Assembly: GCA_035642095.1 (NCBI GenBank)
Contig: DASQTB010000136.1
Span: 1-62,034 of the forward strand
Direction of reading: 5' to 3'
DNA: 62,034 nt
From: Actinomycetota bacterium
Lineage (GTDB): Bacteria > Actinomycetota > UBA4738 > CALAEC01
The notes below the pieces were generated by a model, which saw only the letters and a list, made by a program, of their open reading frames with translations, searched no databases and was not told the origin of the DNA. This document shows positions 33,769 to 50,950 of the stretch, in pieces (positions within the stretch are counted from its first letter, which is position 1; each line of letters opens with the position of its first letter). Position numbers and translations under genes: made by a program.

Positions 33769-35157
33769 TCAAACATCGAGGCGATGCATCTTGAGCAGGT
33801 TCGCGTGTGTCCGGCCGGCGGGAGACGACGCCACCATCACCACCGACCCCCCCACGCCGATGTCACGAAGTCCGGTCTCCATCATGGCGATCATCGCGTC
33901 GGTGTCGGAGGGCGGTTCGCATACCCGGGGGGCGACTCCGTGGAAGAGCGTCATTCGCCCGACGGCCCGAGGATCCGGGGTGAATGCGTGGATCGGCACG
34001 CCTGGACGGCACGCCGACAGCAGCCGGGCGGTGAGACCGCTCCGGGTGAAGCAGGCCACCGCTTCGGCACCCCCCCGGAGGGCCAGGACAGCGGCGGCTC
34101 TAGCCAGCGGCAGCTCCTCCAAGTCGAGCGCGCCGGGCTCTCGACCCCGTGGCAGGAAGTCGGCGCCGGCGGTCTCTGCGGTCTCCAGGATCCGTGCAGC
34201 GGTTCGGACCGCCTCCACGGGATAGCGCCCGATGGCGGTCTCCGCGGACAGGAGGATGGCGTCGGCGCCGTCGAACACGGCCTGGGCCACGTCCTGGGTC
34301 TCGGCCCTGGTCGGGCGGGGAGTTCCGATCATCGACTCGAGCATCTGCGTGGCCACGACCACCGGTCGAGCGGTGTCCCTGGCCAGGGCGACTAGGCGCT
34401 TCTGGAGCACGGGGATCTCCTCGAGCGGCGTCTCCACCCCCAGATCTCCCCGGGCCACCATGATCCCGTCCGACGCGTCCAGGATCGCCGCGGCGTCCTC
34501 GACGGCGGGGCGAGTCTCGATCTTGGCCACGATGACCGGCCTGGGGTCGGGGATCATCCCGGCCAGCGCCCGGACATCGCCCGCCCGGCGGACGAACGAC
34601 TGAGCCACCATGTCGATCCCGGCGCGGAGCGCCCAGCGGAGATCCTCCTCGTCCTTCGGCGAGATCGTCGGCATCGACAGCCGCTCGGACGGAACGTTCA
34701 CCCCGGCCCGAGAGCGGACCGTCCCGCCCCGGACAACCTCGGTCATCACCCCGCCGCCGGCCCGCTCCATCACCCGAAGCTCGACGGCGCCGTCGGCCAG
34801 GAGCACGCGGTCTCCCGGCTCGATGTCCGATGCCAGGGCGGCATGCGTCGTGCCGGCGCCTCGAACGTCTCCGATCCCATCGGGGCGAAACTCGAACCTC
34901 GCACCGGTCTCCAGCGTCACCTCGCCGCCCTCCAAGTCGCCGAGCCGGACCTTCGGGCCGGAGAGATCCGCCATCACACCGACCGGCCGGCCGCCCTGGC
35001 CGGATGCCCGGCGGACGGCCTCGAGGATCCGGACCCGAGCGTCCGGCTCGCCGTGGGAGCAGTTGATCCGAGCGACGTCCATCCCGGCGGCGACCAACTC
35101 CCCGACCCGGTGCTCGGAGGCAGGTCCGAGGGTGCAGACCAGCTTGGTCGCCCTCAA
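33769..35157 (-). CDS. pyk: pyruvate kinase
   Basis: TKLVCTLGPAS..., ARINCSHG, MADLSGPKVR, MVARGDLGVE and VATQMLESM. TTG 35157 overlaps the upstream stop (TTGA). The long N-terminal track extension lies out of frame inside the acuC-like gene. Confidence 0.92.
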   Translation of the reverse strand: MRATKLVCTLGPASEHRVGELVAAGMDVARINCSHGEPDARVRILEAVRRASGQGGRPVGVMADLSGPKVRLGDLEGGEVTLETGARFEFRPDGIGDVRGAGTTHAALASDIEPGDRVLLADGAVELRVMERAGGGVMTEVVRGGTVRSRAGVNVPSERLSMPTISPKDEEDLRWALRAGIDMVAQSFVRRAGDVRALAGMIPDPRPVIVAKIETRPAVEDAAAILDASDGIMVARGDLGVETPLEEIPVLQKRLVALARDTARPVVVATQMLESMIGTPRPTRAETQDVAQAVFDGADAILLSAETAIGRYPVEAVRTAARILETAETAGADFLPRGREPGALDLEELPLARAAAVLALRGGAEAVACFTRSGLTARLLSACRPGVPIHAFTPDPRAVGRMTLFHGVAPRVCEPPSDTDAMIAMMETGLRDIGVGGSVVMVASSPAGRTHANLLKMHRLDV

Positions 35158-45900: not shown

Positions 45901-46452
45901 TCAGGCCACCCGGGCCCCGAGGATCTTCTCGATGTGGCTGAGAGCCCACCGATTGACCTCCCCGTGTTCGTGGCCCGGAGCGCTGAACGTCTCGCACCCA
46001 TCCCGCCGGACGACCACGTCGTAGTCCCGGTTCCGCAGGTCGGAGGTCGTGTGCAGGACGCAGATGTCTGTGCAGAACCCGCAGACGTGGACCTCATCGG
46101 GGCGGAGGTCCTTGAGGACCTGCTCCAGCTCGGTCTCGAAAAAGGCCGAATACCGATGCTTCTGGATCACCGCGGCGGCGTCCGGCTCGAGGTCTCGGAG
46201 CTCCTCCACCAGGTCGTGCTCGTCCGTCCCAACGATGCAGTGGGGGGGAAACATCCGAAACTCGGCGTCGTTCTCGACGTGGCTGTCCTTGGTGAAGAGC
46301 ACCGGGGTGCCGACAGCGATCTCGTCCTCGACGATCCGCCGGATCCGAGGGATCGCCGCGGTGCATTCCGGGCTAGCCAGGTTCCCCTGTCGGGTGAAAC
46401 CTTCCTGTGCGTCGGTGACGATCAGGACCCGGCCGGGCACACGTTCCTCCAT
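45901..46452 (-). CDS. isochorismatase-family cysteine hydrolase (nicotinamidase-like)
   Basis: LIVTDAQEGF, KHRYSAFF and VCGFCTDICV (catalytic Cys) are present. Start at ATG 46452. Confidence 0.8.
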   Translation of the reverse strand: MEERVPGRVLIVTDAQEGFTRQGNLASPECTAAIPRIRRIVEDEIAVGTPVLFTKDSHVENDAEFRMFPPHCIVGTDEHDLVEELRDLEPDAAAVIQKHRYSAFFETELEQVLKDLRPDEVHVCGFCTDICVLHTTSDLRNRDYDVVVRRDGCETFSAPGHEHGEVNRWALSHIEKILGARVA

Positions 46453-46711
46453 ACGGGACGCCTCTCGACCCAACGAAGTATAGGCCGGAAGTTCCCATTG
46501 ACCCTCCTCACATCCTGGTACGGTCCTGCCGTTCCCGGGCACACCGAGTCCCTCTGAGCGTGCAGGTCCGGATGTGGGAGGAAGTGCCGTCGCTCCAAAC
46601 GGAGCGACGATCTGGGGCGTGGTCGACGCCACCATCAACCAGACCGGCAACTCACTGCACGTTCGCCGGTTTCACCCTGTTCGTCGGTCCGACAAGCGAG
46701 GATCCCGACTG

Positions 46712-46746
46712 AAAGAAGGGGCGGCGCGTACGCACCGCCCCTTCTT
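46712..46746 (-). terminator. intrinsic terminator hairpin (minus-strand orientation)
   Basis: AAGAAGGGGCGGUG-CGUACG-CGCCGCCCCUUCUU followed by UC. The stem has one G.U pair on the minus strand that would be a C.A mismatch on the plus strand. Confidence 0.6.
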
Positions 46747-46764
46747 GAGTCGCGGGGGGATATC

Positions 46765-47056
46765 AAAAGGCCCGAGGGACCTTCGGCTCGCCGCTGGACT
46801 CCTTCCGAGGGCGAACCCTCGTCGGCGCCACGGCCACCGTCAACCCCTCGGGCCAAGTGCTCCGAGCAACCCTTGCGGCCCTTCGAAAGTCCCGGCGGTA
46901 GCCCCTTTCGTTGGGCTTTGGGGCCTCCCGAACTTCCCCTACCGCACAGCCAGTTAGCTGTCCCGACCGTACCAGCAAGGTGCGCCCAGTTGGCCTTACG
47001 GCTTTCCCAGGGGGCCCCACTCGGGCCTCCGGTTCGCCACTCCGGCTGCTCGGAGC
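46765..47056 (-). ncRNA. candidate structured non-coding RNA of unknown family (about 290 nt)
   Basis: No credible ORF and lower GC than the flanks. There are three long-range helices: a 13-bp closing helix 47056-47044/46871-46859, a 10-bp helix 46854-46845/46778-46769 followed by UUUU, and a 7-bp helix 46945-46939/46901-46895. Local hairpins have GUAA and UUCG loops. The G.U pairs are only valid on the minus strand. Confidence 0.45.
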
Positions 47057-47063
47057 GAGGCGA

Positions 47064-47093
47064 AGACTATCGGCCGGGTGGCGGAGGCGTCAA
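47064..47093 (-). promoter_or_regulatory. candidate sigma-70-type promoter TTGACG-N18-TAGTCT for the ncRNA
   Basis: -35 TTGACG at 47093-47088 and -10 TAGTCT (TANNNT) at 47069-47064. The predicted start near G47056 coincides with the 5' end of the closing helix. Confidence 0.4.
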
Positions 47094-47197
47094 CTCGCCA
47101 AAATGCCTGCTCATCCAGTGTTTGCGCAGGTCACAGCGCACATATTTCTTGTCGAACTTCCCCGCGGTGAAGCCTCACGTGCGGACCTGCCGCGGAT

Positions 47198-48457
47198 TCA
47201 CGAAGCCCGGGCCACGTCCAGCAGATCGGGGAGCAGCTCGCCGTAGGCGTCCATCACGCCCCCAACCGTCCGTTCCCAGGAGAATTCCCGGGCCTGCCGG
47301 CGCGCTTCCCCGGAGAGCCGAGCAGCTGCCGGATCCCGCAGGATCCGGATCATGGCCCGCCCGTACGAGGCCGGATCGTGATCGCCCAGAAGGAAGCCGC
47401 TCCGGTTGTCGCGGACCACCGACCGAAGACCGCCCACCCCCGCCGCCACCACCGGAACGCCGCAGGCCTGGGCCTCCAGGGCGGCGAGACCGAACGATTC
47501 GGACCGCGAGGGAGCGACCAGGAAGTCGGCGGCCGAGTAGATCTGCGGCAGGTTCTCATGACGGATCGGTCCGAAGAACCGGACGGCCCCGGCCACGCCG
47601 AGCTCTCGGGCAAGCCGGCGGAGATCTTCGACGTAGGCCGGGCCATTCGGGCCGCTCGGACCTCCCACCACGACCAGGGTGAGGTTGCCGGCGACGTCGG
47701 GCGCCGCCCGGCGAGCCTCGGCCAAGGCCCGGATGGCCACGTCGGGCCCTTTCAGCGGCTGGAGACGGCCCACGAACAGGGCCAGGGGACCGTCGATCCC
47801 CAGCGCCCGTCTCGACGCCGCTCGCGGCCGGGGTGCGAACCACGCCGGGTCCACCCCGGGCGGGACAACCCTGATCCGGCCCCGGTCGGCCCCGTAGAGG
47901 GCGACCAGATTGTTGGACTCCTCCTCGGTGGGGGCCAGGATCAGGTCCGCCACGATAGCAGCGTCACGTTCGCCGGCCATCCGGACCACCGGCTCGGTCC
48001 GCCCGATCTCCGGGGCCAGGTTCTTGACCTCTCCCAGAGTGTGGAAGGAGGCAACGAGAGGAACCCCCCACCGGGCCTTCGCCCTGGCCCCGGCCGGCAC
48101 CGAGAGCCAGTAATGGGCGTGCACCAAGTCGTACGAGCCATATGCCTCCGCCCGGTCGACAAGGGAGTCCACGAAGCCCGGGACCAGGTCCGGAAGAGAA
48201 TCCTTGTCGACGGGCGCGCACGGCCCGGCGGGGATCTGGACGACCCGAAAGAGGGGCCCGAGGACGTCGACCTCGGGAACGCCTCGACCCGCGCATCGCG
48301 TGTAGACGTCAACCGCCACATCGCGGCCGGCCAGTCGCTCGGAGAGCTCCCGGACCTCCACGTTCATCCCCCCCGAATCGCCCGTTCCAGGCTGGTCCAA
48401 CGGTGAGGTGTGGAGGCTGATGACCGCGATCCGTGCGAGAGCCGCCCGGTCGCTCAT
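47198..48457 (-). CDS. mshA: D-inositol-3-phosphate glycosyltransferase (mycothiol biosynthesis, GT4)
   Basis: ISLHTSPLDQPGTGDSGGMNV, HAHYWLS, FVGRLQPLKGPD, PSRSESFGLAALEAQACG and PVVAAGVGGL closely match the MshA signatures. Start at ATG 48457. Confidence 0.85.
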   Translation of the reverse strand: MSDRAALARIAVISLHTSPLDQPGTGDSGGMNVEVRELSERLAGRDVAVDVYTRCAGRGVPEVDVLGPLFRVVQIPAGPCAPVDKDSLPDLVPGFVDSLVDRAEAYGSYDLVHAHYWLSVPAGARAKARWGVPLVASFHTLGEVKNLAPEIGRTEPVVRMAGERDAAIVADLILAPTEEESNNLVALYGADRGRIRVVPPGVDPAWFAPRPRAASRRALGIDGPLALFVGRLQPLKGPDVAIRALAEARRAAPDVAGNLTLVVVGGPSGPNGPAYVEDLRRLARELGVAGAVRFFGPIRHENLPQIYSAADFLVAPSRSESFGLAALEAQACGVPVVAAGVGGLRSVVRDNRSGFLLGDHDPASYGRAMIRILRDPAAARLSGEARRQAREFSWERTVGGVMDAYGELLPDLLDVARAS

Positions 48458-50413: not shown

Positions 50414-50950
50414 TCAGGAGGCGGGGTTCCCCAGCTCCGCCTTGAGGCGGCGCTTCATCTCCTCCTGGAGCGAGTCGTGAACCCCGATCACCCGCGTCCG
50501 GACGTCGGAGACCTCGCGCTCCTCCCGCTCGATGTTTCCCGCTGCGTCGTCGAGCTCCTGGTCGGAGAGGGCCTCCAGATCCGACAGCCGCGCGTCGGAC
50601 AGCAGCCGCTCGACCCGGCGTCGGGCCATGGCGATCTCGTCCTCCGGCATCGGGATCATCGGCGCCTCGCCGCGGGACGGACCCCGGCTTCCCTCCGCCA
50701 TCACCGAGACCACCCGTTCCACCACGGGCTGGGCCTCGCCGCCGGTGCGGCGGCGGTCGACCTCGTCCCGGAGCAGGTCCCGTCGACCCTGGAGGAGCCG
50801 GCGGAGGAATGACAGGTACTCGAGCTCGGCCCGGGCCAGGTCGCGACGCCGCCGGACCTCGGAGGTGTCCAACGACGCCAGGCCTTCGGTAAATCCGGCC
50901 TCCAGGACCTGATCGATCCGGCGGTTGCCGCCGGCCATCGTGTCGCTCAT
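50414..50950 (-). CDS. RsiG-like coiled-coil protein (candidate c-di-GMP-binding anti-sigma factor)
   Basis: LDTSEVRRRRDLARAELEYLSFLRRLLQGRRDLL, plus a second helix EREVSDVRTRVIGVHD. Both are near-matches to the RsiG motif E(X)3S(X)2R(X)3Q(X)3D. Confidence 0.55.
   Translation of the reverse strand: MSDTMAGGNRRIDQVLEAGFTEGLASLDTSEVRRRRDLARAELEYLSFLRRLLQGRRDLLRDEVDRRRTGGEAQPVVERVVSVMAEGSRGPSRGEAPMIPMPEDEIAMARRRVERLLSDARLSDLEALSDQELDDAAGNIEREEREVSDVRTRVIGVHDSLQEEMKRRLKAELGNPAS

Follow-up and report, generated by a model that had tools for sequence, protein, structure and literature searches.

A previously undescribed family of structured RNAs from an uncultured soil Actinomycetota lineage

Introduction

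Bacterial RNAs that associate with RNA polymerase are the closest described counterparts of the element reported here, an RNA gene of ~292 nucleotides (nt) on the minus strand (46765-47056) of a 62,034-nt stretch of DNA from an Actinomycetota bacterium (contig DASQTB010000136.1 of assembly GCA_035642095.1), hereafter called the window. Ms1 is an RNA of ~300 nt that is transcribed from a sigma-A-like promoter, that has a rho-independent terminator at 304 nt and that folds into a long hairpin in which a central bubble and its adjacent helices are best conserved, the bubble being needed for binding to the polymerase core (PMC4191392). The genes found in synteny with Ms1 encode a HAD-IB hydrolase (phosphoserine phosphatase-like) and an oxidoreductase (PMC9130861). 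CoRP, an RNA of Corynebacterium identified by RNA immunoprecipitation followed by sequencing (RIP-seq), is 516 nt long; its gene is flanked by tRNA genes, and the RNA is cut into two fragments. Its authors proposed that every species possesses a single abundant RNA associated with the polymerase, which may evade homology searches (PMC11077062).

The RNA gene of the window shares several of these features. Like Ms1 (RF02566; MTS2823 in M. tuberculosis and scr3559 in S. coelicolor), it is found in Actinobacteria, encodes an RNA of ~300 nt and stands as a single-gene unit between a sigma-A-like promoter and an intrinsic terminator. It differs from Ms1 by the absence of any profile similarity, the S. 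coelicolor Ms1 sequence showing no resemblance by eye either, and by its neighbors, which encode an MshA-like GT4 enzyme and GNAT or YbjN-like proteins upstream and isochorismatase, TetR, proline dehydrogenase (Pro_dh) or pyrroline-5-carboxylate (P5C) reductase downstream. CoRP, judged by its description, is a precedent for a lineage-specific, structured and abundant actinobacterial polymerase-binding RNA that was missed by 6S and Ms1 searches, while its length of 516 nt, its tRNA-gene surroundings and its cleavage into two fragments set it apart from the present RNA.

A first reading of the window from its letters only (hereafter the sequence-only reading) had proposed a novel structured non-coding RNA on the minus strand, running from a promoter to its own terminator. 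We followed up this proposal by computational analysis, and it was borne out by Rfam scans, by at least 81 related loci and by covariation. The segment 47056-46765 (minus strand) is almost certainly a real, independently transcribed, structured RNA gene, and the RNA belongs to a previously undescribed family from an uncultured soil Actinomycetota lineage. RNAs of ~300 nt that are this structured, conserved and covarying are few, and they have usually opened new biology.

Results and discussion

The RNA is conserved in uncultured relatives

When the MshA-like protein encoded next to the RNA was searched against the GTDB species genomes, 80 loci were retrieved, and a ~400-nt intergenic block of the window was matched in 13 of them at 75-83% DNA identity (nhmmer and blastn). 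All 13 block-carrying loci come from Actinomycetota/Actinobacteria metagenome-assembled genomes (MAGs), and their MshA proteins are 50-62% identical to that of the window. The non-coding block thus outconserves the neighboring enzyme, since 75-83% identity at the DNA level stands against 50-62% for MshA.

A covariance model (R1) built from the homologues of these 13 loci matches positions 46763-47063 of the window at 253 bits and found no copy in the remaining 67 of the 80 mshA loci, being negative downstream of mshA in loci L011 and L014 to L080, which include Streptosporangiaceae, Trebonia, Nocardioides and Actinoplanes. As R1 has no match in these other mshA loci, the family is either limited to one lineage or diverged beyond recognition elsewhere. 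In one of these loci (L011, DATLZQ010000013.1), MshA is 55% identical to that of the window, which is as close as in several RNA-carrying loci, and no copy of the RNA is found within the 2.3 kb available downstream of mshA. Elsewhere in the window, R1 gave a weak match at 35026-35138 (minus strand; 13.7 bits, E = 0.13), which is most likely due to chance.

Metagenome contigs were scanned with a pattern spanning the junction between the two domains of the RNA, described below, and at least 80 loci were obtained. Among the matches listed, 68 of the 80 metagenome loci are matched by R1, with scores of 72-290 bits, so that the RNA is present in at least 81 related loci (13 from MAGs and 68 from metagenomes among the matches listed), in agreement with the conservation in relatives that the sequence-only reading had called for as a check. 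Both partner strands are absent from the other 12 pattern loci, which are chance matches and about as many as expected. The pattern also occurs in two viral contigs, neither of which matches R1, and a viral or mobile origin was rejected. Contigs of soil metagenome assemblies also encode one of the proteins of the window.

The RNA matches no known family and is not coding

Scanning the whole 62-kb window against Rfam 15 at gathering thresholds gave no match, the outcome of a second check proposed with the sequence-only reading. In E-value mode, the segment 46400-47300 and 17 member loci gave terminator-like noise only, and Rfam likewise matched nothing in 16 mshA loci of other Actinobacteria. 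ARAGORN found neither tRNA nor transfer-messenger RNA (tmRNA) in the window; a tmRNA identity is excluded by this result and an RNase P identity by Rfam. The Ms1 profile (RF02566) scored 13.8 bits over 46706-46786, in the terminator region, against a gathering threshold of 162, and had no match in the 17 member loci at E <= 10, while the 6S profile (RF00013) matched neither the window nor these loci at E <= 10. Full-text literature searches found no paper describing the conserved strings of the RNA or an RNA motif linked to mshA.

A coding function was rejected as well: variable columns are spread over the three codon positions without periodicity (75, 78 and 79), and the length of most gap runs is not divisible by three. 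An entry in an RNA family library would stop this 300-nt gap from going unannotated, or from being mis-called as an open reading frame, in high-GC MAGs.

Transcription is predicted to start at the closing helix of the RNA

The minus strand carries a -35 hexamer TTGACG at 47093-47088 and, after an 18-nt spacer, a -10 hexamer TAGTCT of the TANNNT type at 47069-47064, which is the promoter that the sequence-only reading had located there. A scan for consensus promoters also detected one promoter-like site at this place when 0.1 was expected, the register that it picked being TTGACG-16-GATAGT. From the end of TAGTCT, 7 nt lead to G47056, which, as had been noted, is the first base of the 13-bp helix that closes the RNA (P1, 47056-47044 with 46871-46859); the sequence, the fold and covariation all support this helix. 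When the upstream regions of the relatives were read by eye, TTGAC followed by C, G or T stood at the -35 position in all 61 distinct regions, a TANNNT motif followed 16-18 nt past TTGAC in 61 of 61, and the distance from TANNNT to the first G of P1 was about 6-8 nt, mostly 7. This near-consensus sigma-A-type promoter is placed so that the first transcribed base would be the first base of the closing helix or lie 1-2 nt ahead of it. Judged from this promoter geometry and from the U tract at the other end, the RNA is predicted to begin at G47056 and to end within the U tract at 46768-46765. Homologues measure 278-306 nt.

Just upstream, a hairpin of the form CCUGC...GCAGG followed by a T run (47098-47131, minus strand) abuts the -35 hexamer, and the block CTGACCTGCG ... 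CAGG ... TTTTG is kept in relatives. The mshA transcription unit probably ends at this hairpin.

Covariation supports a long rod followed by a 3' hairpin

The minus strand of segment 46700-47070 has a minimum free energy (MFE) of -213.8 kcal/mol (z = -6.4), compared with z = -4.3 for the plus strand, and the MFE folds of 17 divergent members mostly show the first domain as one long rod. We aligned 63 distinct full-length members with MAFFT (alignment A3) and evaluated two models on this alignment: the RNAalifold consensus, with 77 pairs, and a rod model obtained by mapping the MFE rod onto A3, with 93 pairs including domain 2. Standard pairs are formed in 97.3% of the cells for the RNAalifold model and in 94.1% for the rod model, and 36 and 49 pairs, respectively, are changed on both sides. 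For each model, none of 500 shuffles equalled the observed values on any of five measures, and when one partner was slid by 1-3 columns as a control, only 31-50% of the cells were paired in both models. The pairs with the highest mutual information sit within predicted helices. Covariation, a third check proposed with the sequence-only reading, therefore upholds the closing helix along with domain 2 and a rod-like shape of domain 1.

The same alignment settles the strand. At three places (columns 18-234, 260-336 and 268-327), a G.U pair is kept without exception by all 63 homologues, showing that the functional strand is the minus strand of the window; the sequence-only reading had argued from G.U pairs in the same direction, on weaker grounds than those now available.

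Domain 1 (46859-47056, minus strand) is a 198-nt irregular rod of nine helical segments, as indicated by the MFE fold and covariation. Past P1, its lower part continues with a 3-nt bulge and a run of short helices, while its upper part is a helix of ~17 bp topped by a 9-nt loop (46962-46954). In the rod model, the GUAAGGCC GGCC pairs with a distal GGCC, and compensatory versions of this pairing are found in relatives (GGCU/AGCC in L010, GGCG/CGCC in L129 and GGUG/CACC in L084), which rules out the small GCC-GUAA-GGC hairpin of the sequence-only reading. Two more of its internal hairpins conflict with helices supported by covariation. The CUACCG strand of its 7-bp GCGGUAG/CUACCGC helix pairs instead with a 5' CGGGG segment, where columns 49-196 and 50-195 covary, and its ACAGC/GCUGU hairpin is contradicted by the pair between columns 107 and 122 (UA 34, CG 16, UG 6 and GC 4). 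The consensus sequence of most relatives does not allow the fourth hairpin, GGCCC-GAGUG-GGGCC. Neither a pseudoknot nor a long-range tertiary pair was detected in A3, the strongest covarying pairs outside helices falling in gap-rich columns.

A conserved bubble interrupts the rod

Midway along domain 1, the rod is opened by a bubble whose 5' strand, AAAGCCGUAA (47005-46996, minus strand), is near-invariant in the 63 sequences and is flanked by UGGG (47009-47006) and GGCC (46995-46992). According to alignment A3, the 3' strand of the bubble (46906-46921, minus strand), preceded by GGCC, consists of CCAAAG (46921-46916), of CCCA, which pairs with UGGG, and of ACGAAA (46911-46906), and it is near-invariant as well. 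The segment CCCCAAAGCCCAACGAAAGG is conserved in at least 90% of the 63 sequences. The helices on both sides of the bubble are supported (columns 59-62 with 176-179 and 76-79 with 166-169), the latter with compensatory changes. The central loop has 10 by 6 nt and is followed by a 4-bp helix and then by a 1-by-6 loop; opening of the 4-bp helix would enlarge the bubble to ~15 by 16 nt.

The apical loop keeps a self-complementary tetramer

The 9-nt loop at the tip of domain 1, GACAGCUAA (46954-46962, minus strand; A3 columns 110-119), follows the pattern G-A-A/C-NNNN-A-A, and its tetramer in the window, AGCU (46959-46956), is self-complementary. By an approximate tally, the tetramers of the 63 sequences are GGCC (34), AGCU (15), AGCC (8), GGCU (2), GAUC (2), GCGC (2) and AGCG (1). 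About 53 of the 63 loops thus carry a perfect 4-nt palindrome, of four different kinds, and four of the seven tetramer types are perfect palindromes, when this is true of one in 16 random tetramers. In a distance tree computed with the loop left out, AGCU is found in three or more separate clades beside GGCC relatives, and GAUC and GCGC have separate origins. Self-complementarity has been kept through double changes, which suggests dimerization: two paired bases with two bases between them cannot form a hairpin, so pairing between molecules is the simplest reading.

Kissing loops of the dimerization initiation site (DIS) type are found in human immunodeficiency virus 1 (HIV-1), and loop contacts also occur in the oligomeric bacterial RNAs OLE, ROOL and GOLLD. 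The present loop is similar to the DIS type by its 9 nt, its central palindrome, its purine flanks and a palindromicity kept by double substitutions; it differs in that the palindrome is only 4 nt long and that eight sequences have AGCC, and dimerization of the present RNA would be a putative property.

Three or more clades share the allele GACAGCUAA (those of the window, of L150/L099 and of the L125-L154 group, near which L143 clusters), and the change from GGCC to AGCU is each time accompanied by an A-to-C change at loop position 3. This recurrence could reflect convergence, recombination or a further constraint. The same allele also allows the alternative ACAGC/GCUGU hairpin.

Domain 2 ends the RNA

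Domain 2 (46765-46854, minus strand), supported by covariation, is a long hairpin followed by UUUU. In the window, the hairpin measures 86 nt (46854-46769), and its 13-bp basal stem (46856-46844 with 46779-46767) includes the 10 bp GGCCCGAGGG/CCCUCGGGCC (46854-46845/46778-46769), which the sequence-only reading had correctly placed ahead of UUUU. The internal loops of the hairpin (GGUGG and CGAGCC) are conserved and its tip is UUCG; near the tip, about a dozen members, including that of the window, have an insertion of ~20 nt. Columns 250-262/334-346 and 266-274/320-329 are paired in 97-99% of cases, with seven pairs changed on both sides. From these features, domain 2 is probably an intrinsic terminator.

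A second hairpin (46712-46746, minus strand), which is perfectly symmetric and lies between an A tract and a U tract, starts 17 nt past the U tract of the RNA itself, making tandem terminators. At these positions, Rfam gave terminator-like matches only, on both strands. Analogous second hairpins, of different sequence, are found only in the close relatives L102 and L001. The terminator hairpin that had been reported at 46746-46712 is thus present, but as an extra terminator restricted to a sub-clade, outside the conserved RNA, which ends at the UUUU of domain 2.

Possible functions of the RNA

By analogy with described systems, we tentatively favor, with somewhat less than even confidence, that the RNA is a protein-binding rod of the 6S/Ms1 type. 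RNA polymerase would hold the central bubble and its flanking helices as it holds an opened promoter, and would thereby be sequestered or stored; the 3' hairpin would end transcription and shield the 3' end, while the self-complementary apical loops may pair two molecules loop to loop. The architecture fits the published description of Ms1, with ~300 nt, a sigma-A-like promoter, an intrinsic terminator and a long hairpin whose central bubble and flanking helices are best conserved, although the bubble is smaller here. It also recalls 6S RNA (RF00013) in that domain 1, with its 198 nt, is in the size range of 6S, in that it is a rod closed by a stem, with an internal loop at its center and a stem-loop at its end, and in that its gene stands alone. 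6S RNAs are rods of about 160-200 nt whose large central bubble mimics an open promoter; they bind the sigma-70/sigma-A holoenzyme and serve as templates for product RNA, and Ms1 accumulates in stationary phase.

Several observations weigh against a rod of this type. The Ms1 profile reaches 13.8 bits against 162, and the 6S profile is silent in the window and the 17 member loci. Synteny is with mshA rather than with the HAD-IB hydrolase and oxidoreductase genes of Ms1, and no ygfA-type synteny as for 6S is found here. The bubble is small, with 10 nt facing 6 nt and a 1-by-6 loop beyond the 4-bp helix, and it is asymmetric and smaller than that of 6S, compared with which the present family also adds a conserved 3' domain of 86-105 nt. 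A palindromic apical loop is not described for Ms1. Finally, sequence conservation is far higher than in Ms1 and far above what is usual for 6S and Ms1, which would suit an RNA with several partners, or one with a precise tertiary fold, just as well.

These last features give some weight to a possible, if rather doubtful, alternative in which the structured RNA has another job, as a self-dimerizing scaffold, as part of an RNA-protein particle or as a catalytic or ligand-binding RNA, its near-invariant internal loops forming a precise tertiary fold. Loops and helices are extremely conserved across a lineage whose MshA differs by 40-50%, the palindromic tetramer is kept via independent double changes (GGCC, AGCU, GAUC and GCGC), and no likeness to the 6S or Ms1 models is seen. 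Conversely, such a fold is not accompanied by a detectable pseudoknot or long-range tertiary pair, mshA is the only conserved partner gene to emerge, and a 4-bp loop-loop contact would be weak, with the imperfect AGCC in 8 of 63 sequences.

It is unlikely that the RNA is instead a trans-acting base-pairing small RNA (sRNA) whose unpaired C- or A-rich segments (CCAAAG, CCCAAC and the apical loop) pair with mRNAs. An own promoter and terminator and conserved single-stranded segments would suit such an RNA, and actinobacterial 6C-type sRNAs use C-rich loops, but typical base-pairing sRNAs are far shorter and less completely paired than the present RNA, whose helices are conserved as strongly as its loops.

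A cis-regulatory leader or riboswitch that would act through the terminator-like domain 2 on downstream proline dehydrogenase, proC or isochorismatase genes could account for the Pro_dh and P5C reductase genes lying downstream on the same strand in many loci, but it is largely refuted and very improbable, as the next downstream gene varies and is even convergent in three loci, downstream genes have their own -10 motif past the U tract and are often leaderless, the next gene in the window lies beyond a second terminator and a further 270 nt, and no segment was seen to compete with the terminator stem, which is among the most conserved parts, both points being atypical of an expression platform. 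Just as hard to credit is an origin as part of the mshA operon's 3' end (a processed 3'-untranslated-region RNA or a stabilizer made by read-through), which would explain the constant same-strand position downstream of an mshA-like gene, but which sits badly with the conserved hairpin and T run that separate this gene from the RNA and with the -35 and -10 motifs found at a fixed distance from the closing helix in 61 of 61 upstream regions.

Returning to the polymerase-binding rod, the proposal of one polymerase RNA per bacterium (PMC11077062) comes without examples beyond cultured genera, and the present family supplies, from uncultured soil Actinomycetota, a candidate that is concrete and can be tested. 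Its 63-sequence alignment, its supported secondary structure and its defined promoter and ends give direct entry to synthesis, polymerase-binding and dimerization tests. As a bolder and so far speculative extension, the family might be a new class of abundant housekeeping RNA of a widespread uncultured lineage of soil Actinomycetota, either its own polymerase-sequestering RNA, independent of 6S, Ms1 and CoRP, or a self-dimerizing RNA with a new protein or ligand partner, in which the bubble would be the putative binding site and the apical loop would pair two molecules.

Genomic neighborhood

In every locus with sufficient upstream sequence, the RNA lies 3' of an mshA-like gene on the same strand, at a distance of 105-291 nt, or of about 610-1220 nt (mostly 640-725) when a GNAT or YbjN-like gene lies between them. 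The intergenic gap that holds it in the window measures ~757 nt, rather than the 745 nt first given. Its GC content (0.665-0.685) is below that of mshA (0.70-0.775), as had been claimed for both flanks, but not below that of the downstream gene (0.635-0.65).

The downstream gene differs by locus, encoding isochorismatase, TetR, Pro_dh or ProC, and is convergent in L155, L002 and L006; in many loci, Pro_dh and P5C reductase genes follow on the same strand. After the U tract of the RNA, most loci carry a further -10 motif, which reads CCTATACT or, in a different clade, GCTACCGTT or TACCGT and which was seen at 46477-46484 (minus strand) in the window and in L003, L008, L010, L086, L099, L116, L119, L127, L149, L150 and others, and in many loci an ATG or GTG comes 6-9 nt after it. 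The downstream genes therefore have promoters of their own, and many of them are leaderless. In the window, a leader of ~30 nt, which contains a GGAGGA ribosome-binding site, lies between this motif and the GTG at 46440. The isochorismatase gene of the window is set off from the second terminator by ~270 nt of extra non-coding DNA (46441-46711) that is not conserved in relatives, in which the downstream gene begins 15-123 nt after the RNA.

An 11-nt direct repeat, GGGGAAGTTCG, is found upstream of the promoter (47163-47153) and within the RNA (46939-46929), with two copies where 0.03 were expected. The repeat is thus real in the window, as the sequence-only reading had observed, but it is absent from all 204 related loci retrieved and is therefore specific to the window rather than a feature of the family.

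The product of the window mshA gene (47198-48457, minus strand) has TIGR03449 as its best NCBIfam match, over its full length and with 408 bits, below the cut-off of 462.5. Judged from this match, it is a divergent MshA-like GT4 enzyme, whose function can be assigned only tentatively.

RsiG is an anti-sigma factor of WhiG and binds cyclic di-GMP. A few kb upstream of mshA, between a BKACE and an asparaginase-II gene, the window encodes a product with a Pfam RsiG domain (50414-50950, minus strand), and this arrangement of BKACE, RsiG-domain and asparaginase-II genes is also found on soil metagenome contigs.

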